Source: Patescibacteria group bacterium (GTDB lineage: Bacteria; Patescibacteriota; Gracilibacteria; UBA1369; PNNO01). Taken from it: 64,000 bases of DNA. Positions 1 to 59,204 of this stretch are shown piece by piece. The notes below the pieces were generated by a model. That model had not been told where the DNA came from, did no database searches, and was given only the letters and a program-made list of their open reading frames with translations. The position numbers and the translations under genes are program-made. The stretch spans positions 6,635 through 70,634 of the forward strand of contig JBHPDK010000002.1 in NCBI GenBank assembly GCA_042577965.1, read 5' to 3'. Numbering within the stretch: position 1 is the first letter of the stretch; each line of letters opens with the position of its first letter.

Positions 1-843
1 TATATTTTGATTGAAGTTGATGATACTGATGCAACTTTTGGTTCTCTTGTTTGGAGCGCTGCTGACGCGAACAATCCTGTGCAGTTAAGCTCTTCAGCAA
101 GCGATGGGGACAGAATTGAAGATATTGAATACGGTGGTGCTGCATTAACTCCGGGAAATACTTATTATGTAAGAATGGCATTCTCAAATTCATCTGGACT
201 TACCCGTGCAGACCGTGGCCTTTGGACTCACCTTGATATGGGCAACCATTATCAGTTTGATATTGCTTCTACTTACATGGAAATAACAAATGCATGTAGC
301 GATCTGATTGAAGTTGTTGATACAAATGCAGGCGGAAGAGCAGTTGGGCAGCCATTAAAAAATTCACAATATGACAGATATGGTGAAGATACCTGTGACT
401 TTACTATCAATTCAACAGATACATCGTGGAAGGTTTATTACAGTATGGCTCCGACAATAACAGATATGGAGGACAGCTCAGACACATTTACTTTTGCTGC
501 AATAGTAAATCCTAGTGATTATCAGATGGATTCCACTGGTGACAATACATATATAGAAGAAGAATATGGATTTCACATCGATGATATTTCAGGAACATCT
601 GCATATATTCAAGCTGATACTGAAACTGGAACACATGATTATGATGACTGGACTCCTGGAACAACAGGCCAGTATGTATTTGATATCGAAACAGATGCAA
701 GTAAAGACAAAATTTTAGATGGCGGCGGCGGCACTATTACCGGCGGCCAGTTCCGCTTATATATACATGGAGGCGTAGATGATTTTACTGTCGGCGCCAC
801 TTACGACCTCGACACATGGATGGTAATAACAGGAACACCTTAA
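1..843 (+). CDS. 3' part of a large surface protein (FN3-like domain plus C-terminal WxL/pilin-like module); gene starts before the window
   Basis: Frame is open from the window edge. It is colinear with the last ~330 aa of the next ORF (LTPGNTYYVR / GLWTHLD / EEYGF motifs) and ends GATYDLDTWMVITGTP. Confidence 0.8.
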   Translation, partial: YILIEVDDTDATFGSLVWSAADANNPVQLSSSASDGDRIEDIEYGGAALTPGNTYYVRMAFSNSSGLTRADRGLWTHLDMGNHYQFDIASTYMEITNACSDLIEVVDTNAGGRAVGQPLKNSQYDRYGEDTCDFTINSTDTSWKVYYSMAPTITDMEDSSDTFTFAAIVNPSDYQMDSTGDNTYIEEEYGFHIDDISGTSAYIQADTETGTHDYDDWTPGTTGQYVFDIETDASKDKILDGGGGTITGGQFRLYIHGGVDDFTVGATYDLDTWMVITGTP

Positions 844-848
844 TATAT

Positions 849-7203: not shown

Positions 7204-8181
7204 ATGAAAAAACTAAACCTAATAATCTCGATCCTCACTCTAACAATGCTCTTCACAGCATTCGCACCTATGACCAATGCAATTGGCGCTTCACCTCTCA
7301 GAGTTCAACTCGAAGCAGCACCTGGCGAAACTGTTGAAGGAATGGTTCGGGCGCAGAATAGTAAAGATGAAGATCAGGTTGTTGTTTTAATGAAAGGTGA
7401 CTTTTTAGTTGATGAGAAGGAGGATCTGCAGTTTATGTATGAATATGACGAAACAAATAAATGGAGCCTTCAAAATTGGCTTGATTTAAACGAAAACAAC
7501 ATACCGGTTGGCCCTAATGAATCAGTTGAAATTAAATATCAAATCGAGGTTCCGCAGGATGCAGCATCGCAAAGTTATTATGGAGTTGTGTTTGTTCAGA
7601 GTCAGGATCCTGAAATTTTTGAAGGGCTTGGTGGAGTTGGTGTTCAGGCAAATGTAGCTCAGCTTGTTTTGCTTGAGGTAACTGGTGATCTAAAAAGTGA
7701 TGTTGAGGTAAAAGACATGAAGCTTGTTGAAGAAAACGCAGGTCATCGTTTTGAAACAACTGTATTTAACAACGGAAACACTCATGATGCTTCAACTGGA
7801 ACAATAATAGTCACAGATTCAAAATTAAATATACTTGAAGAGCTTGATTTTAATAAAGCAAAACACAATGCCCTGCCTGAAACACAAAAAAATTATATTG
7901 TAATGTGGGAGAAGTTTGCAGAATATGAAGCTGGAATTTATTATGCTTATCTAAATGTTAATGATGAAAATAATGAATACTTAAGCGCAGAACTTAAATT
8001 TGAAATAACAGATCAGGCAGAAATTGAAATTCTTAATCTTAAAATCGGACGAAGCTATACGGAAGCCAAGGCTGCTTATACTGATATTCCTGTAATTCCA
8101 CTTGTTATTATTGGATTCGCTCTAATAGTAGGACTCATCGCAAAAACATGTTGCAGAAAAAAAAGAAAAACAAAAAAATAA
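7204..8181 (+). CDS. DUF916/WxL-interacting (PapD-like Ig) membrane-anchored protein
   Basis: Signal peptide; SP-x-x-x-x-L-x-x-x-PGET start; conserved W and VPQDA..SYYG; second Ig domain with NNGNTH; C-terminal TM and basic tail. Confidence 0.65.
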   Translation: MKKLNLIISILTLTMLFTAFAPMTNAIGASPLRVQLEAAPGETVEGMVRAQNSKDEDQVVVLMKGDFLVDEKEDLQFMYEYDETNKWSLQNWLDLNENNIPVGPNESVEIKYQIEVPQDAASQSYYGVVFVQSQDPEIFEGLGGVGVQANVAQLVLLEVTGDLKSDVEVKDMKLVEENAGHRFETTVFNNGNTHDASTGTIIVTDSKLNILEELDFNKAKHNALPETQKNYIVMWEKFAEYEAGIYYAYLNVNDENNEYLSAELKFEITDQAEIEILNLKIGRSYTEAKAAYTDIPVIPLVIIGFALIVGLIAKTCCRKKRKTKK

Positions 8182-11173: not shown

Positions 11174-13219
11174 ATGTTTAAAAAATTCTATTTATTTACT
11201 ATTACATTAATATTTGCTTGTAATTGTACTGTTGCCTTAGCACAAACAGGCGCTGTTAGTGTTTCTGGTCATGTTTTACCAAAAGATATTACAAATCTTA
11301 CTGCGGTCGATGTAGTTCTCGGATCAGGGGAAGTGGCCTTAACATGGACAACAAGCATTACTTCTAGTGTTGATACTCAAAGAGTAGAAATTACTGGTCC
11401 ACAAGATCCTGGAATTAATTTCACAACAAAAAATTTACCATTTAAAATAATTGACGGAGGTGTTGGGCCTAGTGCAGCAGATAATTACGCTAATTATGCT
11501 CCTTTTACTAATATCACTGGATTAGTCCCGGGAGAAGCTTATATTTTTAGGATTGTTTCTATTGTTGCGGCCCTCGAAAGTCCTGGCGCACCCCCTGATG
11601 CCCAAATAATATTTATCCCTGGCTCAGCACTCCCTCCCCCATTCCTCCAGGATGAACCAGATATCACGCCTACCTCAACTACAAATACTTTATATTGGGA
11701 TAACGGTGGTGTAACCGATGCAACTTTGGAATGCAGAATTATTGCAAGTACAACAGACCTTTATTCTGATCCTCTTGGAGAACCAGTTGGTGGTGTAGGT
11801 GGTCTTGGCGACAGTGGATGGGAAGATTGTCCGGATCCTTTGGTCACATATGAATACGAATTCACCGGCCTGACCCCAGGCACAACATATTACTATCACG
11901 TTCAGTCACGCTCAGCTGTTGATGGCTTGAGCCCTTTTTCAAATGTAGAAGATTCTCAGCAAAGGCCTCCGACTCCAATCCCTCCTCCTGCAGATGATGA
12001 AGAACCTGGTGATGGCCCTGGTGGCGGCGGCGGAATAATCCCAGGTACATGCGGAAACGGAATTTTGGATCCTGTTGAGGAATGCGATGATGGCAATACA
12101 GATGATGGTGATGGTTGTTCTGCAAGTTGTCAGGATGAAGAAGCAGCTGTTTCTCCGGTAGCAGTAGTATGTGGTAATGGAATTGTTGAGCCTCCTGAGG
12201 AATGTGATGACGGCAACACAGATAATGACGATGGGTGTTCGTCTGTTTGTGTAGTTGAGCCTGAACATGCGGTGGCTCCTGCTATAGCAGCAGTCTGCGG
12301 TAATGGAACTGTTGAAGCTCCTGAAGAATGTGATGATGGTAATACAGATTCAGGCGATGGCTGTTCTGACACCTGTTTAATTGAAGAAACAGTTTGTGGT
12401 AATGCAATTGTTGAAGCTCCGACTGAGGAATGTGACGATGGTAACACCACAAGCAATGATGGATGTTCAGATACGTGCCAGTTAGAGGAAATTGTCGAGG
12501 TTGTGCTTGAAATAAGGGGTGCTCCGCAGTATCGTGTTACAAATTTCAAAAGAATGGCTGAAGAATCAATGGTAAATGAATCACTTTTAGATCTTACAAA
12601 AACATCACTAATAGCACAAACAGACACTACTTCCCCTGCAGCTCTTACTCCTACTGCAGGCCAAACTGACACAAGAACAACAACAATAACAACTCAAGAG
12701 TTGGCCGTAGGTGTTGATGCTGATCCAGCTGACATTTATAGAATTTATAATACTCCAAATCGTGGATTAAATGCGCAACTTGGCATATACAAGCCAATTA
12801 TCACAAATCTTGATGTTATAAGTATACAATTGGACAATTTTGGTAATGCCAGCATCCCGATTACCATTGTAGCTGGAACTTACGATTTTGCGCTTAATGG
12901 AGAGGCCCACAACGCAACAATCATGAGAGATAAAAAAATTACATCTGAAACCAAGGTTCTCACCCTCGACTTCACATTTAAAGACACAGTTTTCCAAGTA
13001 GCTGGCGACAACGTAGATGATAATCGCGTAAATGCGCTTGATATGAGCAGAATACTCGGTTCATATAAATCCAAGGGAATTAATATTAGCGACTTCAATA
13101 AAGATCTAAATCCAATAGTTAACGCACTCGACATAGCAATCCTCATCTGGAACTACAAAATGGAAGGACAATACCTGATCCCGCGTGAAGTCGTTATCCC
13201 GCGTGAAGTCGCGATTTAA
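11174..13219 (+). CDS. Secreted protein: two FN3 domains, Pro/Gly linker, four Myxococcus-type Cys-rich (DUF4215) repeats, C-terminal dockerin-like domain
   Basis: GLVPGEAY and GLTPGTTYYY; CGNGxxExxEECDDGNxxxxDGCSxxC four times; duplicated GDNVDDNRVNALD / DFNKDxxxxVNALD Ca-loop-helix motif. Confidence 0.8.
   Translation: MFKKFYLFTITLIFACNCTVALAQTGAVSVSGHVLPKDITNLTAVDVVLGSGEVALTWTTSITSSVDTQRVEITGPQDPGINFTTKNLPFKIIDGGVGPSAADNYANYAPFTNITGLVPGEAYIFRIVSIVAALESPGAPPDAQIIFIPGSALPPPFLQDEPDITPTSTTNTLYWDNGGVTDATLECRIIASTTDLYSDPLGEPVGGVGGLGDSGWEDCPDPLVTYEYEFTGLTPGTTYYYHVQSRSAVDGLSPFSNVEDSQQRPPTPIPPPADDEEPGDGPGGGGGIIPGTCGNGILDPVEECDDGNTDDGDGCSASCQDEEAAVSPVAVVCGNGIVEPPEECDDGNTDNDDGCSSVCVVEPEHAVAPAIAAVCGNGTVEAPEECDDGNTDSGDGCSDTCLIEETVCGNAIVEAPTEECDDGNTTSNDGCSDTCQLEEIVEVVLEIRGAPQYRVTNFKRMAEESMVNESLLDLTKTSLIAQTDTTSPAALTPTAGQTDTRTTTITTQELAVGVDADPADIYRIYNTPNRGLNAQLGIYKPIITNLDVISIQLDNFGNASIPITIVAGTYDFALNGEAHNATIMRDKKITSETKVLTLDFTFKDTVFQVAGDNVDDNRVNALDMSRILGSYKSKGINISDFNKDLNPIVNALDIAILIWNYKMEGQYLIPREVVIPREVAI
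13178..13211 (+). repeat. In-frame 16-bp direct repeat with 18-bp period at the gene end
   Basis: ATCCCGCGTGAAGTCG at 13178 and 13196 (IPREVV-IPREVA). Confidence 0.9.
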
Positions 13220-13701: not shown

Positions 13702-16700
13702 ATGCTTAAAAATATAACAGCCCACATTCTTGCTTTCATCATAGCTTTTACGAGCTTTGTTCCGGCTGCCATGGCAGCTTATTTTTATGTAGATGATAAT
13801 CCAAATTTACGAAAAGGATGCCCAGGGCAAATCAATGTTATGCTTAATACAGAAGGCTCAAATGTGCTTGCAGCAGATTCAACAATGAACTTTAGTACAG
13901 CTGAAATGAGTGTGGTAAATATGGCCCTGAATGTGGCGCTTCCAATGCAGACTTATAATCAGATCACAGGCACTTTACTTGAACTTAGTGGGGCAAGGCT
14001 TCCTGCAACCGGTGCATTTAATGGCAATGGTATTTATGGAATTCTGGATATTATTCCGGATATAGCAGCAGCCAGTGTGACTTTGAATTTTTCACCTGAC
14101 CTTAATGTTGATAATGTAATTGCCGAAGAAATCACTTTTGCAAATATAATCAATATACCGGATGGCGCACAAGACGGAACTATTGCAGTAAAAGACAGAT
14201 ACAATAAAGAAGTTGATGGCGTAGGGTTCTGTACACCGGATTTGAATCCTCCTACTGTTAACTTCATTCTTCCTCCAAATGGTTCAGGCGGCAACCCGGC
14301 TAATCAGCCAAATGAAATCTTTTCAATTCAGGATGACCGTGCAGGTGTAGATATTTCAACTTTATCGTACACAATTGAGGGAGTTAGCTATACAAACACT
14401 TCTGCTCAAACAGATTTATCAGAGTCAGGTGGTGTTCATAGAGTTGAAACAACATTTACTTCAGATTGGAGCCCAGGTCAAAAAGTAGACATCAGTGTTT
14501 ACGTATGTGACTTAAATACAGACCCGGCTCCTAATTGCAATACAACAACCGGCCACTTTAATATTTATTCTCCTCCTCCTCCTTCACCGGTTTGCGGTGA
14601 CGGAATAGTTACTTACACAAACGGCGAACAATGTGACGACGGCAATACTGACAACGACGACGGATGCAGTGCTCATTGTTTTATTGAAATAGAGCCTGTG
14701 GTTTGCCCTGATATTCCAACAGATGTACCTTGCCCTACAGCAGGCTTAACAATTGTTAAAGACTTAAGTGCAGCGCTTCCTCCAGGCCAACTCCCTGTTG
14801 TAACAGGTGTTGGTGCAGCAACTGAAGAAGAGATTCTTGCAGGCGAATATCCTGCAGTTGGAACTGCAATCAAAAAAGGCATCCCAGGATGTACACGTGA
14901 AGATATCACAAAAGATGTACTTGCTGAATTTAACGTTGAAGACAGATACAGTGCAAAAGATATAAGATGTTTAGAGGATGTTGAACACTGTATGCTTCCT
15001 TTCTTAATGCACAGCGCTTACCCGGATGCAAATCCTGCTGGCAACAGATATTACCCTGATGTTTACCTAAGTGGCGAGCGAAGCGAGCCACTTCTTGAAG
15101 ACGATTCAGGGCCAATTTCAGGACAATCAAAAGATGCAATCCACTTTAGTACCCGTGAAGGTATGCTTCATGGATTCTATTTAGACTATATGAACTTAAG
15201 CCCTTTCAGACCACAATGGAACATGACAAGAATACAGATTATTAAAACTCTAAACTGGGCTGTCTTTGGCCAGTTATGGGAATATGAAGAAGAATACTAC
15301 GCAGAAATCGGAGGCGAACAAAACTTAGGCCAGGTACGAAGGCTCGCTGCTGACTTAACACAATGGTGGTATCCAAGATACTACAACTTTGCATGCGACA
15401 AAGGCGTATTTAATTGCGACCCTATGATGAACTTTGGTCCTGATGAAATTTGTTCACCTGAATGGAAGCGTGAAATCTTTGCAAGATACAAAGTATATTT
15501 TGAAGGCCAAAAACAAGAAGTCGCAGATATGAATGAAGACTCAGACGCCGACGGCCTTGTTGATTATGATGAATCAAGAGTCTTCTTAACAAATCCTGAA
15601 AACAAAGATACAGACGCAGACGCCCTCGGTGACGGCGATGAAATAGTAAAATACAAATCAAATCCAAAACTTACAGATACAGACTTTGATGGCCTTGATG
15701 ACGGCGACGAAGTAAACAAATACAAAACAAATCCTGTGCTGCCAGACACTGACGGCGATACATATCCTGATGGAATCGAAATTCGCGAAGGAACAGATCC
15801 TTTAGATCCAAACAGTTCCCCTGTAGATGAAGATGGCGATGGCATTCCTGATAAATGGGAATTACAATATGGAATCAATCCTCAAAACGGTGTAGAAGAC
15901 TTTGATGGCGATGGCCTTTCTGATTTTTTCGAACACAGGTATAGCACAGATCCAACAAATCCGGACACGGATGGCGACGGACTTTCTGACGCTGACGAAG
16001 TGCTTCTATACGGAACAGATCCTAATGAATACACAAACCTTTCAGAACTCGGAGTGCGAATTACAAATATAATGGACCAAATGACTCTTACTGATCCACG
16101 TCCTTTACTTCAGGGCTTCGCTCCTTTAGAAGGAATGGAAGTTGAAATTATTTTACGAAACGAATTCGGCAACGAAGTACTACTCGGAAGCGCTATAACA
16201 GATGTTAATAACGCATGGGTATTCACCCCTGAATTTGACATCCTGGACGGCGAATTCTATTTGTTAGCCAAAGGTCTCGATACCAAAAACAAACGAATTT
16301 TAGAATCTCCACTCATCGGAGTAATAATGAATTCAAAGCTTCAGGTAAGCGAGCCACAGCCAGAACGACTCGGCGACACAAACATCACAGAAGAAGTACT
16401 TCTTGAAGGCTTGAGTATTGAAACCCGCGATTCTGCTCCAATTTTAATCGGACGAACAGGCTTTAAAAACAAAGTAATTGCAACATGGCAGTCAGTACTC
16501 GGTACTTCTGCAATCGTAGCTGACCTTGCTGGCGGCGAATTCAGAATCCAGGCTCCAAAAGAGCTCGCACCCGGTCCCCACAAAGTTTCAGTTTACTCAA
16601 TCCGCGACAAAGACAACGCAATGAGTAAAGTTGTTACTGTTAACTTCGAAGTCAAAGAACCATTTGCTGCAATCCTTCGCGGCGTAGCAATGGGCAAAGA

Positions 16701-16824
16701 ACTTATTTTCCCTCTATGGGTATGGACTATGATCTTCCTGGGCGCAGGCCTATTACTTGGCGGCGGCATGTGGATCGAACACCACAGAAAAAAGAAAAAA
16801 GACGGCAAAACTGAGAAGAAATAG
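13702..16824 (+). CDS. Membrane-anchored surface scaffold: cohesin-like domain, Ig-like domain, DUF4215 repeat, SLH-like domain, TSP3-type Ca-binding repeats, Big/Ig domains, TM
   Basis: N-terminal INVMLNT..AAD..MNF..NGNGIYGIL cohesin pattern; YPDV..DAI..EGMLHGF..FRPQWNMTR SLH pattern; about 8 DTDGDGLxDxxE repeats; C-terminal TM and basic tail. Confidence 0.75.
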   Translation: MLKNITAHILAFIIAFTSFVPAAMAAYFYVDDNPNLRKGCPGQINVMLNTEGSNVLAADSTMNFSTAEMSVVNMALNVALPMQTYNQITGTLLELSGARLPATGAFNGNGIYGILDIIPDIAAASVTLNFSPDLNVDNVIAEEITFANIINIPDGAQDGTIAVKDRYNKEVDGVGFCTPDLNPPTVNFILPPNGSGGNPANQPNEIFSIQDDRAGVDISTLSYTIEGVSYTNTSAQTDLSESGGVHRVETTFTSDWSPGQKVDISVYVCDLNTDPAPNCNTTTGHFNIYSPPPPSPVCGDGIVTYTNGEQCDDGNTDNDDGCSAHCFIEIEPVVCPDIPTDVPCPTAGLTIVKDLSAALPPGQLPVVTGVGAATEEEILAGEYPAVGTAIKKGIPGCTREDITKDVLAEFNVEDRYSAKDIRCLEDVEHCMLPFLMHSAYPDANPAGNRYYPDVYLSGERSEPLLEDDSGPISGQSKDAIHFSTREGMLHGFYLDYMNLSPFRPQWNMTRIQIIKTLNWAVFGQLWEYEEEYYAEIGGEQNLGQVRRLAADLTQWWYPRYYNFACDKGVFNCDPMMNFGPDEICSPEWKREIFARYKVYFEGQKQEVADMNEDSDADGLVDYDESRVFLTNPENKDTDADALGDGDEIVKYKSNPKLTDTDFDGLDDGDEVNKYKTNPVLPDTDGDTYPDGIEIREGTDPLDPNSSPVDEDGDGIPDKWELQYGINPQNGVEDFDGDGLSDFFEHRYSTDPTNPDTDGDGLSDADEVLLYGTDPNEYTNLSELGVRITNIMDQMTLTDPRPLLQGFAPLEGMEVEIILRNEFGNEVLLGSAITDVNNAWVFTPEFDILDGEFYLLAKGLDTKNKRILESPLIGVIMNSKLQVSEPQPERLGDTNITEEVLLEGLSIETRDSAPILIGRTGFKNKVIATWQSVLGTSAIVADLAGGEFRIQAPKELAPGPHKVSVYSIRDKDNAMSKVVTVNFEVKEPFAAILRGVAMGKELIFPLWVWTMIFLGAGLLLGGGMWIEHHRKKKKDGKTEKK

Positions 16825-17758: not shown

Positions 17759-18022
17759 AATACTCTGAATTGTTCGTTAGAACAGTTACATGCAAACCCA
17801 ACAGCATTTAAGGGGGAGTCAATATTTTTACTGACCGTGGTCTCTATTTGAGACACCCCACCTACAACATTAGGTTTGTGCATGTCATTTGATTCGACGG
17901 CAACTTCGGAGTTTTTTAATGGTTGGCAAATTCGCAACAACCCACTTTTGTGCAACAATGACGCCTCGTCGCACGAACCCACTTCGTGCAACGAACCCAC
18001 TTCGTCGTAACCAACAAGTATT
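17759..18022 (+). ncRNA. Candidate structured ncRNA of unknown family
   Basis: Convergent intergenic region with promoter TTGCGC-17-TAAAAT (17727-17755), nested helices and repeated CCCAC-loop hairpins. Confidence 0.5.
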
Positions 18023-21790: not shown

Positions 21791-24700
21791 TTGGTTCCGA
21801 AAGAAATTAAAATCAGTGATCTTTTTGATACTGCCCAGAATATTCGCGTTTTGGATCTTTTTCATAAACACAAAAATATCAGCCTAAGTGGGGCTGGGAA
21901 CGCTGCATCAAAGGCATTTGTGGTATTTGAGCTTCTTAAAAAATACAAAGAATATAAGAAGATTTTATGGATTGTTAATGACCCAATGGAACAGGAAAAT
22001 TTAATTAAATCATTACACGTTTGGAGCAACATCCAAACATATAGTTATTTATTAAAAGAGGAAATTTCTCAGGAAAATTTAATTGAAACCCTGAGCACAA
22101 TTGCGCATCTACAGGATGCTGCAAAAAAAATAATAATTGCACCTTATCAGACAATCCTTGAAGACGTTACGTCAAAACAAGAGCTTGATGAATCAAAATT
22201 TATGATCGAGGAGGGCCAAAATATAACAAATATTGAATTAATTGAAGCACTGGTTGAGCTTGGATACGAAGTTGCACCAGGTGATTTTTTAGAAAAAGGA
22301 ATGTACTACCAGAAAGGTGAAATCATAACGGTTTACCCTGTAAATACCGATCACCCAATTAGGTTCGAGCTTGCATTTGATAAAATCGAAGCACTTGATT
22401 TATATGAACAGGAAAACGGTAAAAAAACCGTTAAAAAGCTAAAAAAAGCTGAAATTTATCCTTTAAAAATAAAAACCGACACAGGTGTTTTAACAGAATA
22501 TCTCGACAAACACACGCTGCTGATCGAGGACGAAATCGATGTTATAGATGATTATTTTGAGGCCTGGAACGCTTTAATGGACGAAGCCTACGAAAAAAGC
22601 GCCTCTTTAACTTTTACAACTTTCAACGAAGACGTCTCTCAACACGAGCACCTTCATTATTTATCAGTGTTAAGTTATCGTGGCTCATACGACTTTATAA
22701 GCGACCTTAGGGACAAACAAAGAAACAACTGGAATGTTGTAATTTACACTAAAAAAATAGATGAGCTTAAAGAGATGCTGGGCGAAAGTAATGTTCCTTA
22801 TACGGAAGATTTAAAACAACTGGCAGATCCTCAAAAAAGTCCAAACTTTTTATTTTTAGTTAATTTGGATGTTGAGGCGGTATTCCCAAAATCATTCCAA
22901 AATCCAGAAATAAAACTACTGTTTTTAAGTGATAAAGATATTTTGTCGCTAAAAGAAGAAGCCAAAAAGTCATTTAATCAAAAAGTGTACTTAGACTTCT
23001 TAACCGGCTTAAAGCCTAACGATTTCGTTGTTCATGCAGATCACGGAATCGCAAGATTTTATGGCCTTGAAAAAAAAACCGTAGATGAAATTACGCGTGA
23101 ATATTTAAAACTCGGGTACGCAGAAAACGACAAACTTTTTGTACCGATTGATCAGGCCGACAAAGTCAACAAATATATCGGAGCTGAAGAAAACGCGCCA
23201 AAACTTACACGCCTTGGTTCGGCTGAGTGGGCAACCGTGACTAGTCGTGTTAGAAAAGAAACTGAAATAATCGCAAAAGAACTTTTGGTTTTATATGCAA
23301 AACGAAAAACTGCAAAAGGATTCAAATTTAAGTTGGACAATGATCTTCAGGCAAAATTTGAAGCAACCTTCCCATACGAAGAAACACCTGGTCAGTTTAA
23401 ATCTATTAATGATGTTAAAGAAGATATGGAAAGAGAAATTCCAATGGACCGTCTTGTTTGCGGGGATGTTGGATTTGGAAAAACCGAGGTAGCTATGCGC
23501 GCGGCATTTAAGGCTGTACAAAGCGGGAAGCAGGTTGCGCTGGTTTCGCCAATTACAATTTTAACAGACCAACATTACCGTTCGTTCACTAAAAGAATGA
23601 ATCAGTTTGATGTGCGAATCGAAATGCTTTCGCGCTTTAGAACTCCAAAACAACAGCGCGAAATTTTAGGACGCCTTGAAAAAGGAGAAGTAGATATTGT
23701 TATTGGAACACACAGATTATTACAACCGGATATTAAATTTAAAGACCTTGGACTCATTATCGTGGATGAAGAGCAAAGATTTGGGGTTAAGCAAAAAGAG
23801 AAATTAAAAGAAATAAAAAGCGAAGTGGATGTTGTGACTTTAACAGCAACACCAATTCCACGAACCCTAAATATCTGCTTAAACAAACTACGCGATATAA
23901 CCACTATTACAACACCTCCCCCGGGCCGTTTACCTGTAATTACAGAGGTGCGACGTTTTAGTAATGGTCTTATCCGGGATGCAATTCTGCGCGAAGTAAA
24001 ACGCAACGGCCAAATTTACTTTTTACACAACCGTGTTCAGACAATTGATGGTATGGCAGATAAATTACGTAAACTTGTACCAGAGGCAACGTTTGGGGTC
24101 GCACACGGCAAGCTCGGAACAGGAGACCTTGAAGAAACAATCGTTGCATTTAAAGAGCACAAATTTGACGTGCTCGTAAGCTCAACAATTATTGAAAATG
24201 GAATCGATCTGGCAAACGCTAATACTTTAATTGTTAATAATGCAGAAAAATTCGGGCTGGCACAGCTTTACCAGTTACGTGGACGTGTTGGCCGTGGAAA
24301 AACACAGGCTTACGCATACTTTTTGTATCACGGGCAAAGGCTTAAATTAGACGCGAAAAAGCGTTTACGTGCAATTGTTGAAGCCAGCGACCTGGGTAGC
24401 GGATTCCAGATTGCCATGAAAGACCTTGAGATTCGCGGAGCCGGCGATATTTTAGGAGCCAATCAACACGGAGTGATAAATGTTGTGGGTGTTTCGCATT
24501 TTATCCGCATGTTAAATAAGGCAGTTGAAGACCTTAAAGCAGGTCGCCTTGAAGCTGGCAAAGAAGGCGAAGAAGCATTTGAAGTTGCAATTGAGCTTCC
24601 GGTTTCAGCGTTTATTCCTGACGATTACATTGTTAATGCAAAAGATAAAATTAATGCGTATCAAAAGATTTCAGGTGCGGATGGTCTGGAATATTTAAAT

Positions 24701-25033
24701 GATTTAAATAAAGAGATGGTACAGGAGTATGGGAAAATGCCGCGCGAAGTTCAGAATTTATTCAGAGTCCTTGTGTTAAAAATCGAATCTAAAAAAGCAG
24801 GCTTAACAAATGTAAAAGCTGAAAATGTGCACATGGATCGTGGCAAGCAAATTGTTTTATCAATGTCTAAAAAGGTAAGACCAGAGAACATAATGAACCT
24901 CCTGGAATATAATCCAAAGTGGATAATAAGCGGAACAAAGCTAAAAATTAATATTGAGGACCTGGGGCTCCACTGGTTTGATGCATTAAAAGACAACGTT
25001 AAAAAACTGCAAAAAGCTTTAAAAACAAAATAA
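21791..25033 (+). CDS. mfd: Transcription-repair coupling factor
   Basis: CarD-like domain, CGDVGFGKT, DEEQRFG, QLRGRVGR, TRCF C-terminus. Confidence 0.98.
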   Translation: MVPKEIKISDLFDTAQNIRVLDLFHKHKNISLSGAGNAASKAFVVFELLKKYKEYKKILWIVNDPMEQENLIKSLHVWSNIQTYSYLLKEEISQENLIETLSTIAHLQDAAKKIIIAPYQTILEDVTSKQELDESKFMIEEGQNITNIELIEALVELGYEVAPGDFLEKGMYYQKGEIITVYPVNTDHPIRFELAFDKIEALDLYEQENGKKTVKKLKKAEIYPLKIKTDTGVLTEYLDKHTLLIEDEIDVIDDYFEAWNALMDEAYEKSASLTFTTFNEDVSQHEHLHYLSVLSYRGSYDFISDLRDKQRNNWNVVIYTKKIDELKEMLGESNVPYTEDLKQLADPQKSPNFLFLVNLDVEAVFPKSFQNPEIKLLFLSDKDILSLKEEAKKSFNQKVYLDFLTGLKPNDFVVHADHGIARFYGLEKKTVDEITREYLKLGYAENDKLFVPIDQADKVNKYIGAEENAPKLTRLGSAEWATVTSRVRKETEIIAKELLVLYAKRKTAKGFKFKLDNDLQAKFEATFPYEETPGQFKSINDVKEDMEREIPMDRLVCGDVGFGKTEVAMRAAFKAVQSGKQVALVSPITILTDQHYRSFTKRMNQFDVRIEMLSRFRTPKQQREILGRLEKGEVDIVIGTHRLLQPDIKFKDLGLIIVDEEQRFGVKQKEKLKEIKSEVDVVTLTATPIPRTLNICLNKLRDITTITTPPPGRLPVITEVRRFSNGLIRDAILREVKRNGQIYFLHNRVQTIDGMADKLRKLVPEATFGVAHGKLGTGDLEETIVAFKEHKFDVLVSSTIIENGIDLANANTLIVNNAEKFGLAQLYQLRGRVGRGKTQAYAYFLYHGQRLKLDAKKRLRAIVEASDLGSGFQIAMKDLEIRGAGDILGANQHGVINVVGVSHFIRMLNKAVEDLKAGRLEAGKEGEEAFEVAIELPVSAFIPDDYIVNAKDKINAYQKISGADGLEYLNDLNKEMVQEYGKMPREVQNLFRVLVLKIESKKAGLTNVKAENVHMDRGKQIVLSMSKKVRPENIMNLLEYNPKWIISGTKLKINIEDLGLHWFDALKDNVKKLQKALKTK

Positions 25034-25222
25034 ACAATTAAAAAACTTGACTTCTTGGTCAGAACCATTATAATCACAGCACAATTGATACTGGCTATAT
25101 GCTTTATTGACCCTGCTTTCGAGTAGTGGCTTAGCGCGCAGCCATTGATTGACAAGTAGGGGGTAGTTACCCACACATTTATTCCCACTCACCCGCGGCG
25201 TTTAAAGGAGGACAAATCTAGT

Positions 25223-25465
25223 ATGGTAGATTCGACGGGGAAAGGCACAGTGATTTTACTGATCATTTGTGGGCAGCAGTCGTACCGTTTCCACGCTCCC
25301 CTGGAGCACGTGGAAAACATCAAGCTGACATTTGCAAAAGGATGCACTGTTCAGGGACCGTACGATCAGGACCTCGTGAAGATCGAGAACGTCCCACCCG
25401 CGCCCAGGCGCAAGAAGCGGTCAGCTGGGCCTATGAGGAAGGCCGCCTTAAAGATCAGGAAGTAG
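25223..25465 (+). CDS. GC-rich hypothetical 80-aa protein enclosed by paired UTRs
   Basis: AAAGGAGG SD; promoter TTGACT-16-TATAAT at 25047-25074. Confidence 0.55.
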   Translation: MVDSTGKGTVILLIICGQQSYRFHAPLEHVENIKLTFAKGCTVQGPYDQDLVKIENVPPAPRRKKRSAGPMRKAALKIRK

Positions 25466-25595
25466 ACTAGTTAAATGCTGTGTGGGAACCATGACGGAGG
25501 CCGTATGTGCCAATTCCGTTTCAATACTACCCCCTCACAGCTAATCTGGATTAATTTTGAAAAACCTTTAAAATATACAATGTTCTTTGATTTAT

Positions 25596-26013
25596 GGGGA
25601 TGTACTGGCATTCGACAGAGGTATTTTTAATTTGCTGGTTGCAATCAGGGGATCGCGCTGTCTCCCCTTATATCCGTCCAGCGCATTTATAATTGCTGAC
25701 GAAGCTTATAATAAAGCTGCTTTCGCAAAACTCTTCAAAGCTCCGGCTTTAAGAGTTCCTGCAATGGCAGTTGCCTAAGTGCCTAAGTGTACTTACGTCC
25801 TTATAATTGATGTCTAATATTTTATAAGGGCGCAAATTATTAGACTGTATCTCTTTTTATGATTTGGATTGAGATCGAGGAATCTACAAATCATCCGCCT
25901 TCTCGGCTTTTTGTTCGTTCTTTATCGTTGAGGCGTAACTAAAACGAACTAAGATTGTAGACACTAACATTTTAGGCCTTTGCACCCGGGTTCGACTCCC
26001 GGCATCTCCACCA
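25596..26013 (+). ncRNA. ssrA: tmRNA; tag reading frame 25695-25778, (A)ADEAYNKAAFAKLFKAPALRVPAMAVA
   Basis: 5' GGGGATG..TTCGAC; 3' CCGGGTTCGACTCCCGGCATCTCCACCA; ATAATT precedes the resume codon. Confidence 0.95.
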
Positions 26014-26023
26014 AATGGCTTGT

Positions 26024-26815
26024 TTAAGGGCATTTTGGCTGTTTGCTTAACCATAATTTTGCAGTAGGGAATCCTTTTGTTGAATCCTTAGGTACAGTTT
26101 CTGCTGACAATAAACCATATGAGCCATACATTGCACCAGCAGCCCACCTTCTTGAACCAGTTTGGGCGCACAATATATCCCGTTCTTTCCAAATACATTC
26201 AGCCCCTATCATTGGATTACCAAAAGATATTACCCTTCTATATCTTGTATCAAGACAGGCATCAATTTGACCTTCAAACAAAATTCTTAGCCTTTCTGGG
26301 CTAACTTCTGCTTTACCACCCTCAATTCTACTTTTTTTTCTCTCATAACCTTCTAATGCATCAGCTATTGTAATAGCTAATTGTTGCAAGTCTTTAAAAG
26401 ATTGTTGTTCAAGAACTTGTTTTCTTTGTTCATCTGTAAGGTTTGCAAATTTAATTTTTCTATTATCTTTAATTGCATAAATAGCAATCCCATCATTTTG
26501 ATTTGCCAATTCAATACTAGTTCCATCTGGTAGCTTTTTTAAAACTTCGCTTCCTCTGCGCATTGGAAATTCTTTATCCATTGGTTGAGGATTTGAAAGC
26601 GGTATAGGTGTATCAGCTTTATCTACGTCTACCCTATTAGGTTTTGTTGGTAAGCGTTTTGTAGATGCTTTTGGTTCTTCCGTATTAGGCTTTTTGCCTT
26701 CGCAAGCTGCAGCAGTTAAAGCTAAAATAGCAGCAGCTAAAGTGGCAACAGCTTTTGAATTATGTATTTGTTCAGTACGACTTGTTGGTACTTGTGCTTT
26801 TAAGACTTCGTTCAT
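26024..26815 (-). CDS. Hypothetical protein, possible lipoprotein
   Basis: 263-aa ORF; hydrophobic stretch ending AAAC. Confidence 0.7.
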   Translation of the reverse strand: MNEVLKAQVPTSRTEQIHNSKAVATLAAAILALTAAACEGKKPNTEEPKASTKRLPTKPNRVDVDKADTPIPLSNPQPMDKEFPMRRGSEVLKKLPDGTSIELANQNDGIAIYAIKDNRKIKFANLTDEQRKQVLEQQSFKDLQQLAITIADALEGYERKKSRIEGGKAEVSPERLRILFEGQIDACLDTRYRRVISFGNPMIGAECIWKERDILCAQTGSRRWAAGAMYGSYGLLSAETVPKDSTKGFPTAKLWLSKQPKCP

Positions 26816-26960
26816 AATAACTTTATTAAGCTGTGTTTAAATTACTGGTTAATTGTGCTCTGTGTCAAATATATATAAACGCACCTAATTCCAATTCCCC
26901 ACATGTGTTATATATAAATATAATATTTACTTTTAAATAAGCCTTTAAACAGCGCATGCC

Positions 26961-27040
26961 TTAAGCTTTCTCACTAAAGGCAGCCACTCAACAACCGCTT
27001 CATTAAACGAGTTCCAAAAATTTTGGCCTGTGTCCACCAA
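26961..27040. repeat. 80-bp direct repeat, copy 1; attP-arm-like, ends TCCACCAA
   Basis: 77/80 identical to 27548-27627. Confidence 0.95.
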
Positions 27041-27079
27041 ATTACCCCTTTTCGTTTTAAAACGAGATTTAGATATGGG

Positions 27080-27118
27080 AAAAGGAGGGATAGATCTTTT
27101 TAGTTATCTATCCGCTCC
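27080..27118 (-). terminator. Intrinsic terminator
   Basis: Minus strand GGAGCGGATAGAT...ATCTATCCCTCC-TTTT. Confidence 0.7.
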
Positions 27119-27192
27119 AATTTCCTCGTCTTTAGCTATACTCACCAACACTTTCTGCAGCTAGTTGCTGCCAGTTCAGTCAGTTGTACAGG

Positions 27193-27324
27193 TTATCGCC
27201 CACCTCCTCGAGCCAATTGTCGTTGGATCCGCATGTCGGCTCTTATGACGCAGATCGCCACAATTATGGCGGCCACCGTGAGGGCAACAATTATTGTCGA
27301 GAAAATAACCTCAAGGATCCACAT
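27193..27324 (-). CDS. 43-aa single-TM peptide, absent from the ORF track
   Basis: MWILEVIFSTIIVALTVAAIIVAICVIRADMRIQRQLARGGGR; SD AAAGGAG; promoter TTGACA-17-TATAGT at 27506-27478. Confidence 0.7.
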   Translation of the reverse strand: MWILEVIFSTIIVALTVAAIIVAICVIRADMRIQRQLARGGGR

Positions 27325-27547
27325 TTCGTTCTCCTTTGATTAAACGTTTTGGTGTCTTATTAGCAGACGAGGAACAAATGCCCCTCGCAGCTCTCTCAGA
27401 CATATCTGAAAAGCCTTGAATGAGGCGTTTGTGTTCATCAACTAACAGTCGTTAAATTTTCAAGGGGCGGAAGTGCAACTATACGGCAACCAAGCGCCTT
27501 TGTCAACTCTTGCGCCATCTTTTACTGCTAAGGTTAAATACTATTCG

Positions 27548-27627
27548 TTAAGTTTTCTCACTAAAGGCAGCCACTCAACAACCGCTTCATTAAACGAGTT
27601 CCAAAAATTTTGGCCTTGGTCCACCAA
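27548..27627. repeat. 80-bp direct repeat, copy 2
   Basis: Matches 26961-27040. Confidence 0.95.
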
Positions 27628-27685
27628 CATTGACAAAACATGAAGACCGTGTTACCATTTTAATGGTAAATGTTAAAAATTAAAA

Positions 27686-28342
27686 ATGGATTTAAGCAAA
27701 GAACAATCATCTTCAAAAACTATAAAAATCAACAATTTAAGAGACCTTTGCACAACAGATGGATTAGCTGTGCCTAGAGAAACTATGCCTCAAGAGCTTC
27801 AAGAATTAGCTAATGAAAAAGTGCAGAGTGTTCTTGTTGTTGAAGACCAACAAGGAGGAAGCATTGAATACAACCCTAGATTTTTATCAATAACATCTCG
27901 GGATCTTGAAGCTGAAGAAGTTACTGGAATTCGAGGCTCTTTAATCCGTGCAGTGCAAAAAGTTGAAAATGAAGTTGATTCGCAGACTATGTTATTAGAC
28001 GAAATATTGCCAGAAGACAATGACCTTTTAGCTTATTTGGTAGATAAATTATCAACACCAGAAAAGGAAATCCAAATCGGCACAGAAACTGATGCTATTT
28101 GTAATTATATAAGGTTTTACAGTACTTCGGATGACCGCTTTATTGTTACAGCAGAATCATCTAGCCCTGAATATGTTGATTATTTACACATTGTAGAAGT
28201 GGATATAAAAAATGGTACACCAAAAATTAATCCAACCACACAAGGAGAAGATGCGAGGCCATTAACGCAAGCAGATCCACTTATGAAGAACATCTTAGTG
28301 CTTGCTGAAATGCTAATTAAAAGAAAGCAAACCGAAGCTTAA
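27686..28342 (+). CDS. Hypothetical protein
   Basis: 218-aa ORF; promoter TTGACA-17-TACCAT at 27630-27658. Confidence 0.75.
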   Translation: MDLSKEQSSSKTIKINNLRDLCTTDGLAVPRETMPQELQELANEKVQSVLVVEDQQGGSIEYNPRFLSITSRDLEAEEVTGIRGSLIRAVQKVENEVDSQTMLLDEILPEDNDLLAYLVDKLSTPEKEIQIGTETDAICNYIRFYSTSDDRFIVTAESSSPEYVDYLHIVEVDIKNGTPKINPTTQGEDARPLTQADPLMKNILVLAEMLIKRKQTEA

Positions 28343-28369
28343 TATAAAATGCTAGAATTAGTTGAATTT

Positions 28370-28401
28370 GAGTTCCAAAAATTTTAGTCTGTGTTCATCA
28401 A
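28370..28401. repeat. Partial, decayed copy 3 of the direct repeat
   Basis: GAGTTCCAAAAATTTTAGTCTGTGTTCATCAA; 28/32 identical to the end of copy 1. Confidence 0.85.
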
Positions 28402-28466
28402 GAAGCACTTGACAATAGCCAGGAAAGATTATAAAGTAATCCCCTTTTTGTTATAATTTAAATATA

Positions 28467-28892
28467 ATGTCAGAAAAACCTCCCCAACAACCTGAAAAAC
28501 CTAAAATCTTTAATGTTCACGAGTTTGTCCAAAAACTCAGCTTATTAGAAGTTCAACTTTTTGAAGTGATTCAAAAGCTTGAACAAGCTATGAGAGACAA
28601 AGATGAGAATAATATTGCTATATTTATGGCCAAAAAAACCCGGCTTACTAATGATATGTTTGCGCATCTTGCACATGCTTTAAAAATATCAAACGGCAAC
28701 GTACGCAGGTTGGCTCAATTCAATCCCAATAATACACGATATTATATGAAGCTATCTCTTCCCTGTGAACCAAGGTTTTTGTGGATGGGAGTTGAAGAAT
28801 GGCTTGCAGATAAAGAAGATGATGAAGTGCCAATTGCTAAAGGAAAGAGCATAGAAGAGGCTATTAATGCTTTATTAAATCCCCCTCAATAG
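28467..28892 (+). CDS. Hypothetical protein
   Basis: 141-aa ORF; promoter TTGACA-17-TAAAGT at 28409-28437. Confidence 0.7.
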   Translation: MSEKPPQQPEKPKIFNVHEFVQKLSLLEVQLFEVIQKLEQAMRDKDENNIAIFMAKKTRLTNDMFAHLAHALKISNGNVRRLAQFNPNNTRYYMKLSLPCEPRFLWMGVEEWLADKEDDEVPIAKGKSIEEAINALLNPPQ

Positions 28893-28895
28893 ATT

Positions 28896-29300
28896 TCAAT
28901 TCAGGTATTTGTATTCTTCACTTAGAATACTTAATTTAATGTCCAACCGCTCTCCGCCTATTCCTGGTTCTTTGGAGTGTAATTGTAAAAGTTCAAGCCA
29001 ATTTCTTTCCAATTGCCCTTCTCTTGCTACGACTTCTAATAATTCTGAATTACCTGAGGATATTAAGCTATTTATAGCAGTCTGCGTCTCAAGTTTTATA
29101 GCAATCCTTCTAAAACTGGAACTTTTTAAAAGCTGTGTATATTTTTTTAAAAGCTCTATTCTTTCCTCATAAGGAGTAGATTTTGAGCTGGCTGTATTTA
29201 AATCCTCTTCCACCTTATCAAGAGCAGCATCAAATATATTTAGCAGATATTTTTTTGCTTCAGGCAAGCTGTTTCCTTTTTGTGAGGATTCTAAGCGCAT
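28896..29300 (-). CDS. Hypothetical helical protein
   Basis: ORF from MRLESSQ. Confidence 0.6.
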   Translation of the reverse strand: MRLESSQKGNSLPEAKKYLLNIFDAALDKVEEDLNTASSKSTPYEERIELLKKYTQLLKSSSFRRIAIKLETQTAINSLISSGNSELLEVVAREGQLERNWLELLQLHSKEPGIGGERLDIKLSILSEEYKYLN

Positions 29301-29438
29301 AAGAAATATAATTAAATAAAGGTTCAATTAAAACACAAAGTATTATATTAGTCAAGCTTTTAACGAAATGCCCACCCAGGCGTTGTGCGAGTCGCCTTTT
29401 TGTGCTATAATATCATTGAAAAACAATAAAAATAAAAA

Positions 29439-30194
29439 ATGAAAAAACCCTCTATAAAGCTAACAATTAGTGTATTTACTCTTACTGTAGTTGCTACTGC
29501 ATCTTTTGTCCTTGGCATGTCAACTAATCCCGGCCCTGCAGAAGCAAGATTAATTTCTGAATATGAAGATACAATTGAAACAATTTTTGATGTAGTTGAA
29601 TTTAAACCTAATTTTGAAACAGAATCTTTTTTTGAGGTTTTTCGATTTAAAGATAAGATAAAAGGAGACAGTTTTTTTAATATTCTTTCTTTTGCAAGCG
29701 GAGGTTCATTTGACAGTTATTTTGACAGAGCTTGCTCTCAGCAAATCATACCTGACAGTTTTTATGATGTTTTTATTAAACACGAAAGATCAAATACAGA
29801 ATCTTTTGTAGCCACTTATTGTGATCCGGAAGAAGGTTCAACATTTACCGCTAATATGTTTTTTAGAGAATTTAGATTTAGAAATTATTTAAAAGGTGAA
29901 GAAATTTTCAATGTATTCAAATTCAATTTTGACTTTGATGCTGCAGATTTTTTTGATGTTTTTACCCTGAAAAGAAGTTATCAAACGGAGGATTTTTTTA
30001 AAATTTTCCAAATGAATAGAAATTTTAAGCCGGAACAGATATTCGATGCTTTTAAACTCAATCAGGAATATAGCAATGAAAGCTTTTTTGATGTGTTTTC
30101 ACTAAATAATGATTATTCAATTGAAAGCTTTTTTGATCTTTTTATGACAAAACGGGACCTCGACAGATTATTAGAAGTGCCGAGAAGACGTTAA
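29439..30194 (+). CDS. Secreted Phe-rich 15-aa tandem-repeat protein
   Basis: Signal peptide; about 13 repeats of xFFxxFxxxxxxxxE. Confidence 0.8.
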   Translation: MKKPSIKLTISVFTLTVVATASFVLGMSTNPGPAEARLISEYEDTIETIFDVVEFKPNFETESFFEVFRFKDKIKGDSFFNILSFASGGSFDSYFDRACSQQIIPDSFYDVFIKHERSNTESFVATYCDPEEGSTFTANMFFREFRFRNYLKGEEIFNVFKFNFDFDAADFFDVFTLKRSYQTEDFFKIFQMNRNFKPEQIFDAFKLNQEYSNESFFDVFSLNNDYSIESFFDLFMTKRDLDRLLEVPRRR

Positions 30195-30225
30195 GAAAGA
30201 GCGCGATTTTTTGATTAATCAAATT

Positions 30226-59111: not shown

Positions 59112-59204
59112 TGGCGGAGAGGGGGGGATTCGAACCCCCGCGGCCACATAAGTAACCCTACAGGATTAGCAATCCCGCCTCTTCAGCCACTTGAGTACCT
59201 CTCC
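59112..59204 (-). tRNA. tRNA-Ser(GCT)
   Basis: GGAGAGG acceptor stem, CGGGA-TTGCTAA-TCCTG anticodon arm, long variable arm, TTCGAAT, encoded CCA. Confidence 0.97.

Follow-up and report, generated by a model that had tools for sequence, protein, structure and literature searches.

Recombinase-less mini-cassettes probably inserted in series at the 3' end of a Patescibacteria tmRNA gene

Directly behind its transfer-messenger RNA (tmRNA) gene, ssrA, the 64,000-nucleotide (nt) stretch of DNA from an uncultured Patescibacteria-type bacterium analyzed here (64 kb; called the window below) carries three short units of 1026, 587, and 774 bp, each made up of variable cargo followed by a conserved arm of ~72 nt and an 8-bp core that repeats the end of the tmRNA gene. 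These units are probably mini-cassettes without a recombinase of their own, which would have been inserted one after the other at the tmRNA-end core and mobilized in cis by an unseen helper element. At the center of this reading stands the middle unit (cassette T), which recurs letter for letter in a second, divergent Patescibacteria genome, where it is joined to the end of the tmRNA gene itself.

Cassettes at the tmRNA end

Each unit is flanked by copies of the core, the first of which is the tmRNA end, and holds a single open reading frame (ORF), which encodes 263 and 43 amino acids (aa) in the first two units, both on the minus strand, and 218 aa in the third, on the plus strand. Two other Patescibacteria genomes, one obtained from a single cell (L001) and one assembled from a metagenome (L002), served for comparison. 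In window positions, the parts of the array are the following.

25596..26013, plus strand: tmRNA gene (ssrA), one-piece (ARAGORN; Rfam RF00023, 114 bits against a gathering score of 47)
26007-26014, plus strand: 8-bp core TCCACCAA at the end of the tmRNA gene, the putative insertion point; 7 of its 8 bases lie within the gene
26015..27040, no strand: cassette 1, 1026 bp, cargo with arm 1 and core; tmRNA core on the left, arm 1 and core on the right; absent from L001 and L002
26961..27040, plus strand: arm 1 (~72 nt) and core TCCACCAA (27033-27040); repeat search; nhmmer E value of 8e-27
27041..27627, no strand: cassette T, 587 bp, apparently self-contained transcription unit with arm 2 and core; guanine-plus-cytosine (GC) content of 43.8%, against 37.3% for the window overall
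27548..27627, plus strand: arm 2 and core TCCACCAA (27620-27627); repeat search and nhmmer; identical to the L001 arm at 80 of 80 positions
27628..28401, no strand: cassette 3, 774 bp, cargo with decayed arm 3; absent from L001 and L002
28370..28401, plus strand: arm 3, decayed, with core TTCATCAA; 88% identical to copy 1; nhmmer E value of 4e-4

The repeat search recovered the arms as two copies of 85 nt (26956-27040 and 27543-27627), which are 94% identical and start 587 nt apart, and a partial third copy (28370-28401), of which only the last 32 nt are recognizable. A first-pass annotation, made by a model from the letters and a list of ORFs, had placed these repeats at 26961, 27548, and, in part, 28370, had noted that copies 1 and 2 share the end of the tmRNA gene, and had called the most distal copy the most decayed. 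All of this was borne out: TCCACCAA closes the tmRNA gene as well as copies 1 and 2, and copy 3, with its 32 nt at 88%, ends in TTCATCAA instead. At up to three mismatches, the rest of the window contains no further occurrence of either repeat half, and none of 100 shuffles gave two matches.

In a blastn comparison, positions 27033 to 27627 of the window matched positions 10619 to 10025 of L001 with 100.000% identity over 595 nt, as against 72.5% over 4409 nt of dnaN-mfd DNA and 69% for the tmRNA genes of the same two genomes. The block of identity starts at the tmRNA gene's own TCCACCAA in L001 and at the TCCACCAA of arm 1 in the window; in both genomes it ends at the TCCACCAA that closes the arm of cassette T, beyond which L001 continues with different DNA. 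Given complete identity against ~72% in housekeeping DNA, together with exactly shared ends, cassette T must have entered at least one of the two genomes recently, with a join that falls within 8 bases. These alignments show that cassette T has been transferred horizontally, from which we take it to be mobile.

The chromosomal setting is the same in all three Patescibacteria stretches, which share the order dnaN, mfd, tmRNA gene, a variable interval, a membrane protein pair (127/128 aa), RNase Y, a small ORF, and a VanW-domain gene. Since their Mfd proteins are 78% (L001) and 73% (L002) identical to that of the window, the three represent different species or genera of one lineage. The variable interval holds three cassettes in the window, one in L001, and two in L002, and the only cargo common to any of these genomes is that of cassette T. 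In L002, the cores of the two arms end at locus positions 6959 and 5876, and 60 nt separate the second from the first of the conserved genes downstream; this spacing and the conserved synteny mark the tmRNA-downstream interval as an insertion hotspot.

L001 and L002 had come out of a genome scan in which the conserved minus-strand reading of the repeat was back-translated and compared with one genome per species (185,579 species). Two exact peptide patterns were used, by which diverged arms are missed; the scan gave 74 pattern matches, three of which were confirmed. In L001 and L002, the repeat lies downstream of the tmRNA gene, in the same orientation as the tmRNA, and the comparison of ssrA-downstream regions across relatives that the first-pass annotation had proposed has in this way returned the same arm in both. 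The third match (L003) comes from a Planctomycetota genome, where it falls within a 151-aa ORF in GC-rich DNA; there is no tmRNA gene in the 20 kb examined, and the match was judged to be due to chance. A DNA profile of the arm, run with nhmmer without filtering over the window and the L001, L002, and L003 stretches (117,309 nt in total), yielded five full arms and one partial arm, all in the three Patescibacteria stretches, 0.6 to 2.4 kb downstream of the tmRNA gene and in tmRNA orientation. In the three Patescibacteria stretches, the repeat was thus not found dispersed away from ssrA and tRNA genes, a case that the annotation had named as refuting its proposal. The sole further hit at an E value of <1 was the L003 site (E value of 4.5e-4), whose stretch had been fetched for that very match; besides it, no additional decayed arms were found at E values of <1 farther downstream or elsewhere in the 117 kb.

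That copies 1 and 2 are nearly identical and lie close together might suggest a local tandem duplication, or a chance repeat unlinked to the tmRNA gene. However, the DNA between the copies is unrelated from unit to unit, the arm recurs beside the tmRNA gene in two other genomes, and zero matches are expected by chance; the genome scan, the junctions, and the 595-nt match of cassette T have already refuted this explanation, to which we give practically no credence. Serial insertion of units with one gene each, by a recombinase that acts in trans, as put forward in the first-pass annotation, is supported by the arm beside the tmRNA gene in two relatives, by the identity of cassette T, and by the finding that no recombinase gene lies nearby.

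The arm, its recombinase, and the proposed helper

The minus-strand reading of the arm, which the first-pass annotation had likened to a displaced integrase C terminus, is open in all four distinct arms, with a stop 2 to 5 codons beyond the conserved part. Frame 0 of the plus strand is likewise open in all arms, the 16 variable arm positions are split 6:6:4 over codon positions 1:2:3, and no long ORF precedes any arm. A word-based search with the arm peptide among proteins of 92 to 2000 aa gave five candidates, none of them at an E value of ≤10, and a profile of the peptide, compared with 1.84 billion representative proteins, had three hits, namely, a 49-aa ORF, a 34-aa ORF, and an unrelated repeat protein. 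The 49-aa ORF continues into sequence resembling the flank of window copy 1, and the 34-aa ORF has a more diverged arm that shows the same residue pattern at lower identity; these two short ORFs, evidently further copies of the arm, indicate that it is present in at least two further genomes or samples. As the protein library contains ORFs only, the openness of these two carries no weight. With its codon pattern, two open frames, and no long homologue, the arm is not supported as coding sequence or as an integrase C terminus.

These observations also bear on the idea that the array is fixed wreckage, that is, that the units are remnants of full-size islands or prophages deleted in place, with an arm that might be the old 3' coding end of an integrase overlapping its phage attachment site (attP). 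The minus-strand frame that is open in four of four distinct arms, the residue pattern kept by the 34-aa ORF, and the decay of arm 3 fit this idea, and degenerated elements with scattered attachment (att) repeats at tRNA and tmRNA genes are described for Prochlorococcus (10.1101/2020.12.28.424599) and Dehalococcoides (PMC3146451). Against it stand the missing third-position excess (6:6:4), the equally open plus strand, the lack of any long protein that carries the arm peptide, and the fact that database ORFs are open by construction. Moreover, decay that proceeded independently in hosts with 72% identical housekeeping DNA cannot have left both with one 587-bp unit that matches at 100% and is cut off at exactly the same two points, and we consider wreckage very unlikely as an explanation.

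Neither did the arm resemble the attC site of integron cassettes or a folded RNA element: six single-stranded DNA folds (three arms, both strands) had z scores of −0.26 to +1.69, and the consensus fold of the arms reached −3.3 kcal/mol, with none of 13 pairs compensatory. Another candidate, a displaced 3' fragment of the tmRNA gene, was rejected as well; 153 and 175 of 500 shuffles aligned to the tmRNA equally well, a result that excludes the 8-mer. No Rfam model of tmRNA or tRNA matched between 26820 and 28470 at an E value of ≤10, and phage and plasmid collections held no match to the arm. Not demonstrably coding, lacking a match among long proteins, and without an attC-like hairpin, the arm is read here as a predicted noncoding site at which a protein would recognize double-stranded DNA. 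In the terms used for att sites, arm plus core would be the P-O half of attP, and the tmRNA end would be B-O. Identity among arms is 77/80 within the window, 74/80 within L002, and 65 to 70/80 between the window or L001 and L002, which is better than the ~71 to 72% of housekeeping DNA between the same genomes.

On the chromosomal side, the window, L001, and L002 do not differ in the 33 nt of the tmRNA end that finish with the core, and a single site-specific system could therefore work across all three hosts. A motif like ATTTTGGCC(T)TG was seen by eye at 25964-25984, just upstream of the tmRNA T-arm, at 26039-26054, ~25 nt into cassette 1, and at 27020-27036, in the arm beside the core.

Pfam searches found no recombinase family among 58 ORFs of the window or among 15 ORFs of L001 and L002, and Resolvase, Recombinase, and zinc-ribbon recombinase domains were absent from the same 58 and 15 ORFs. 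The window has no intI-type gene beside the docking site, where the neighbors of the tmRNA gene are mfd and orphan genes, and L001 and L002 likewise have none. With no recombinase gene nearby, the enzyme would act in trans.

The first-pass annotation had opted for a large serine integrase on the basis of spacing, which it gave correctly: in the tmRNA gene, GGGTTC and TCCACCA are separated by 13 nt, and in the repeats, GAGTTC and TCCACCA are separated by 18 nt. In serine integrases, the zinc-ribbon motif of attP lies ~5 bp farther out than that of the bacterial site (attB), and the arms would accordingly be the left half of an attP in which GRGTTC is 5 bp farther from the crossover than in a tmRNA attB. 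GAGTTC is kept in all six arms, the decayed arm included. GGTTC, however, is a near-universal T-loop motif and in this tmRNA belongs to the T-arm, which makes a match at 5 of 6 positions nearby weak evidence; the comparison concerns a single hexamer, on one side and chosen post hoc. The dyad partner expected on the other side would be GAAC or GAACYC in inverted orientation; in the 50 nt that follow the core on its right, none of the nine junctions has it (0/9), and the serine recombinase domains looked for in the ORFs above were absent. The Islander paper names only tyrosine-family integrases as known to target tRNA and tmRNA genes (PMC4383910), a low base rate for a serine enzyme. There is one precedent at ssrA, the tandem islands of Dehalococcoides, for which DsiB, a serine recombinase of the CcrB family, is the proposed integrase, encoded by a gene whose 3' end overlaps the att repeat (PMC3146451). 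We did not maintain the attP/attB assignment and regard a large serine integrase as a quite unlikely mover of these cassettes; by base rate only, a tyrosine recombinase is favored over a serine recombinase. For phage mv4, whose tyrosine integrase targets a tRNA gene at its 3' end, a 7-bp exchange region and unusually tolerant core sites are reported (10.1101/2023.11.06.565760).

For the movement of the cassettes themselves, we infer site-specific recombination with the aid of a helper, which is most likely a full-size integrative element or a temperate phage that uses the same tmRNA site, and the events might have followed this order. A helper with a full attP (arm, core, and a left end of its own) would integrate at the tmRNA core beside a resident cassette. 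Excision between the tmRNA-side junction of the helper and the distal arm and core of the cassette would produce one circle carrying both, and, after transfer and integration in a new cell, the helper could leave alone via its own arm; the cassette would remain, joined to the tmRNA gene exactly at the core, as it is in L001. Such a hitchhiker would supply only its distal arm and core at each step, from which conservation on one side of the core would be expected. Repeated visits by helpers would stack cassettes, with the newest beside the tmRNA gene and the older ones pushed outward, which would leave the outermost arm as the most decayed.

To the right of the core, cassette left ends and chromosomal flanks indeed have no sequence in common, with three exceptions. 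First, the two cassettes of L002 share 32 of 33 left-end nt (core plus the next 33 nt, 41 nt with one mismatch, at 7875-7915, behind the tmRNA gene, and at 6919-6959, behind the first arm), unlike the cassettes of the window. Second, the first 14 nt of cassette 1 (26015-26028) match the flank that follows the array in L001 (10024-10011) with one mismatch, a local alignment that 3 of 200 shuffles equaled; this match would reflect either a conserved native trailer of the tmRNA gene or a shared cassette left end. Third, the flank that follows copy 3 includes a part similar to the beginning of cassette T on its left side, and none of 200 shuffles did as well. In all, the comparison of left ends turned up the L002 pair and three weaker similarities.

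Some of this weighs against mobilization by a helper, as do a few further points. On account of the L002 left ends, conservation is not strictly one-sided in that lineage, and free-standing cassettes with a two-sided attP would fit them equally well. Cassette 1 may be captured chromosomal DNA rather than an incoming element. No inverted core-binding sites were visible by eye around the core, and no helper element or recombinase with this arm was seen in the three genomes (~117 kb). An assembly artefact is possible in the single-cell genome L001 or in the window, against which speak the precise junctions of cassette T in two contexts.

The shared left ends of L002 are also what would be expected of circles with a complete site, and they lead to a different proposal, a gene-capture platform in which a resident recombinase would insert and excise free circular cassettes singly, with the tmRNA end as an attI-like dock and the arm as an attC-like site. 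Arrays of single-gene units, a conserved distal element on each, and a fixed proximal site are in keeping with such a platform, as are a 587-bp unit that moved alone between hosts and the two shared ends (32/33 nt on the left, arm on the right) in L002. However, no recombinase gene adjoins the site in any of the three genomes, attC-like hairpins are lacking (z scores of −0.26 to +1.69; 0/13 compensatory pairs), the cassettes appear to bring their own promoters, and the left ends are unrelated among the cassettes of the window; on balance, we find the platform unlikely. Compared with these alternatives, hitchhiking on a helper probably remains the better account of the array. Going beyond the single array, one might tentatively imagine, though we would not bet on it, a previously undescribed and integron-independent cassette system of the Patescibacteria (candidate phyla radiation), in which the tmRNA end would serve as a universal dock and a trans-acting recombinase would pass self-expressed, sub-kb cassettes from genus to genus out of a standing pool, each with one gene and a double-stranded arm of ~72 nt as its tag. 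If so, the tiny, reduced genomes of these bacteria would have a dedicated route for sampling accessory genes.

Cargo genes and flanking DNA

The cargo genes, the promoter-like sites, and the DNA beyond the array are listed here in map order.

26024..26815, minus strand: cargo of cassette 1, 263-aa orphan (ORF list); hydrophobic N-terminal stretch ending in Cys, lipoprotein-like by eye
27193..27324, minus strand: cargo of cassette T, hydrophobic peptide of 43 aa that ends in a basic tail; ATG preceded by AAGGAG at a distance of 6 nt
27478..27506, minus strand: promoter-like TTGACA-17-TATAGT (11/12) upstream of the 43-aa gene; consensus match only
27630-27658, plus strand: promoter-like TTGACA-17-TACCAT, starting 3 bp past copy 2; consensus match only
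27686..28342, plus strand: cargo of cassette 3, 218-aa acidic orphan (ORF list)
28409-28437, plus strand: promoter-like TTGACA-17-TAAAGT, starting 8 bp past copy 3, in the chromosomal flank; consensus match only
28409..28892, plus strand: chromosomal flank beyond the array, with a 141-aa gene (28467-28892) that has a relative in L001 (34% identity; E value of 2e-18)

Pfam, NCBIfam, and PHROGs assigned none of the cargo proteins to a family with a meaningful score, and no integration or transfer genes were found in the units. Among 5.8 billion protein clusters, the sole match of the 263-aa protein was the protein itself, and an atlas search with the 263-aa and 218-aa proteins gave no usable match. 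No homologue of the 43-aa peptide was found among proteins of 23 to 76 aa.

The 43-aa peptide consists of ~26 hydrophobic residues followed by its basic tail, and its predicted transcript would have a leader of ~146 nt, a strong ribosome-binding site, and hairpins after the gene. The mRNA (27150-27472, minus strand) is predicted to be strongly folded (z score of −3.15; 0 of 100 shuffles as good), in such a way that the 5' end pairs with the region immediately beyond the stop codon. Control by such folding back is a feature of type I toxin mRNAs, and in form (a small hydrophobic peptide encoded by a highly structured mRNA) the gene resembles a type I toxin gene, although no family match was found. 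The plus strand is also structured at 27041-27200 (z score of −3.56), and, as regards an antisense RNA, a terminator-like site is present at 27413-27426. Phage records gave only a 26-nt chance match to cassette T, in three Lactococcus phages (E value of 5e-3), and plasmid records gave nothing.

The TTGACA sites that the first-pass annotation had placed within 10 bp of copies 2 and 3 are where it said (3 and 8 bp), but sites of this kind are no more frequent between 25000 and 30300 than in shuffled sequence (16 found versus 16.7 expected). Judging from consensus matches, cassette T and cassette 3, at a minimum, seem to bring a promoter of their own.

As it has a relative in L001, the 141-aa protein looks like a gene of the lineage rather than cassette cargo. 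Farther downstream, the interval from 28896 to 30225 is lineage specific and without a recognizable arm; it includes a gene (29439-30194) for a 251-aa, secreted-looking protein with many short repeats of the (D/E)xFF(D/E)VF type, which belongs to no family and has no relative in L001 or L002 at an E value of <1e-5.

Upstream, the tmRNA gene is preceded by mfd (21791-25033), whose product has TRCF, CarD-RID, and UvrB-interaction domains. The spacer between mfd and the tmRNA gene (25034-25595) also varies among the three genomes, with no blastn match, and contains a GNAT acetyltransferase gene in L002. In the window, its stretch from 25180 to 25480 has a GC content of 52.5%, versus 37.3% overall, and an 80-aa ORF (25223-25465) without a Pfam, NCBIfam, or PHROGs family lies there behind a strong AAAGGAGG site. 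A second tmRNA fragment was considered for this GC-rich spacer and dismissed, as Rfam gave no match; the stretch may be another foreign insert, on the opposite side of the tmRNA gene.

Elsewhere in the window, a 2124-aa ORF (816-7190) and the next four ORFs are without families (Pfam at an E value of ≤1e-5 for the former), and large proteins with DUF4215 or bacterial TSP3 repeats are encoded at 11174-13219 and 13702-16824. A 6S RNA gene (17759-17916) was identified with Rfam (58.3 bits against a gathering score of 46.4). At the tRNA-Ser(GCT) gene (59112-59204, minus strand; ARAGORN and Rfam), the arm profile found nothing.

Relation to known systems

The mobile elements of the Patescibacteria are poorly known, and our full-text literature search, which has most subscription journals outside its coverage, found nothing on tmRNA-linked cassettes in this group. 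In other bacteria, the closest parallel is provided by the ssrA islands of Dehalococcoides (McMurdie et al. 2011, PMC3146451). These islands also lie in tandem at ssrA, each repeat is immediately preceded by a conserved motif that derives from the element and does not align with ssrA, and 15 of the islands lack an integration module and are read as cis-mobilizable, against 16 that carry the serine recombinase module. They differ in having a 20-bp repeat with a crossover in the T-loop and a 15-bp motif, whereas the core described here is 8 bp long, lies at the extreme 3' end of the gene, and is preceded by an arm of ~72 nt. In addition, the Dehalococcoides islands are multigene elements of a different phylum, whereas the cassettes are 0.6 to 1.0 kb in size, with one gene each and no recombinase in view.

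The hitchhiking that we propose has a counterpart in the cis-mobilizable elements (CIMEs) and site-specific accretion defined for the ICESt1 family (PMC5704250). As described there, CIMEs have an att site on either side, have lost their genes for integration and transfer, and form tandem series at the 3' end of a target gene; a related element can mobilize them by inserting next to them. They are, however, decayed integrative and conjugative or integrative and mobilizable elements of kilobases to tens of kilobases, whereas the present units are minimal and uniform, apparently have their own promoters, and have no known parent. That one cassette is unchanged between divergent hosts suggests a standing class of hitchhikers rather than occasional wreckage.

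The first-pass annotation had called the array integron-like, and, as an analogy, this stands: like integron cassettes, the units are ordered and carry a single gene each, with a conserved element at the distal end and, on the proximal side, a fixed site to which the newest unit presumably lies closest. Beyond the analogy the comparison fails, as there is no adjacent intI-type gene, the arms do not fold like attC, and the dock is the end of an essential RNA gene. Unlike the mostly promoterless cassettes of integrons, moreover, these units have genes on both strands, and three units have promoter-like sites of their own (consensus matches only).

Integration at a tmRNA gene, restoration of the gene end, serial outward displacement, and the accumulation of remnants are shared with the islands in tRNA and tmRNA genes collected by Islander (PMC4383910) and with the tycheposons of Prochlorococcus (10.1101/2020.12.28.424599). 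Those elements have an integrase on board and a displaced fragment of the target tRNA or tmRNA gene (tDNA) that can be found by similarity, whereas in the present array the repeat takes in no more than 7 nt of the gene, and no integrase is present. The crossover sublocations described there, namely, the anticodon loop, the T-loop, and the junction of T and acceptor stems (PMC4383910), all lie less far 3' than the core reported here. Going by the filters described for Islander (PMC4383910), such units would escape programs that look for islands by an integrase gene together with a displaced piece of tDNA, and similar miniature hitchhikers may go overlooked elsewhere. The arm could serve as a concrete probe for the helper, the recombinase, the range of cargo, and the reach of gene flow in reduced Patescibacteria genomes, and arm-core and tmRNA end are together a candidate pair of compact sites on which a site-specific recombinase would act.

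In summary, the literature already describes tmRNA genes as sites of serial integration, as well as displaced repeats, tandem arrays, and cis-mobilizable members that lack a recombinase (PMC3146451, PMC4383910, PMC5704250, and 10.1101/2020.12.28.424599). What the present array adds to these systems is uniform single-gene units of less than 1 kb or close to it, an element-derived arm as their marker, a different phylum, and one unit found letter for letter in divergent hosts.

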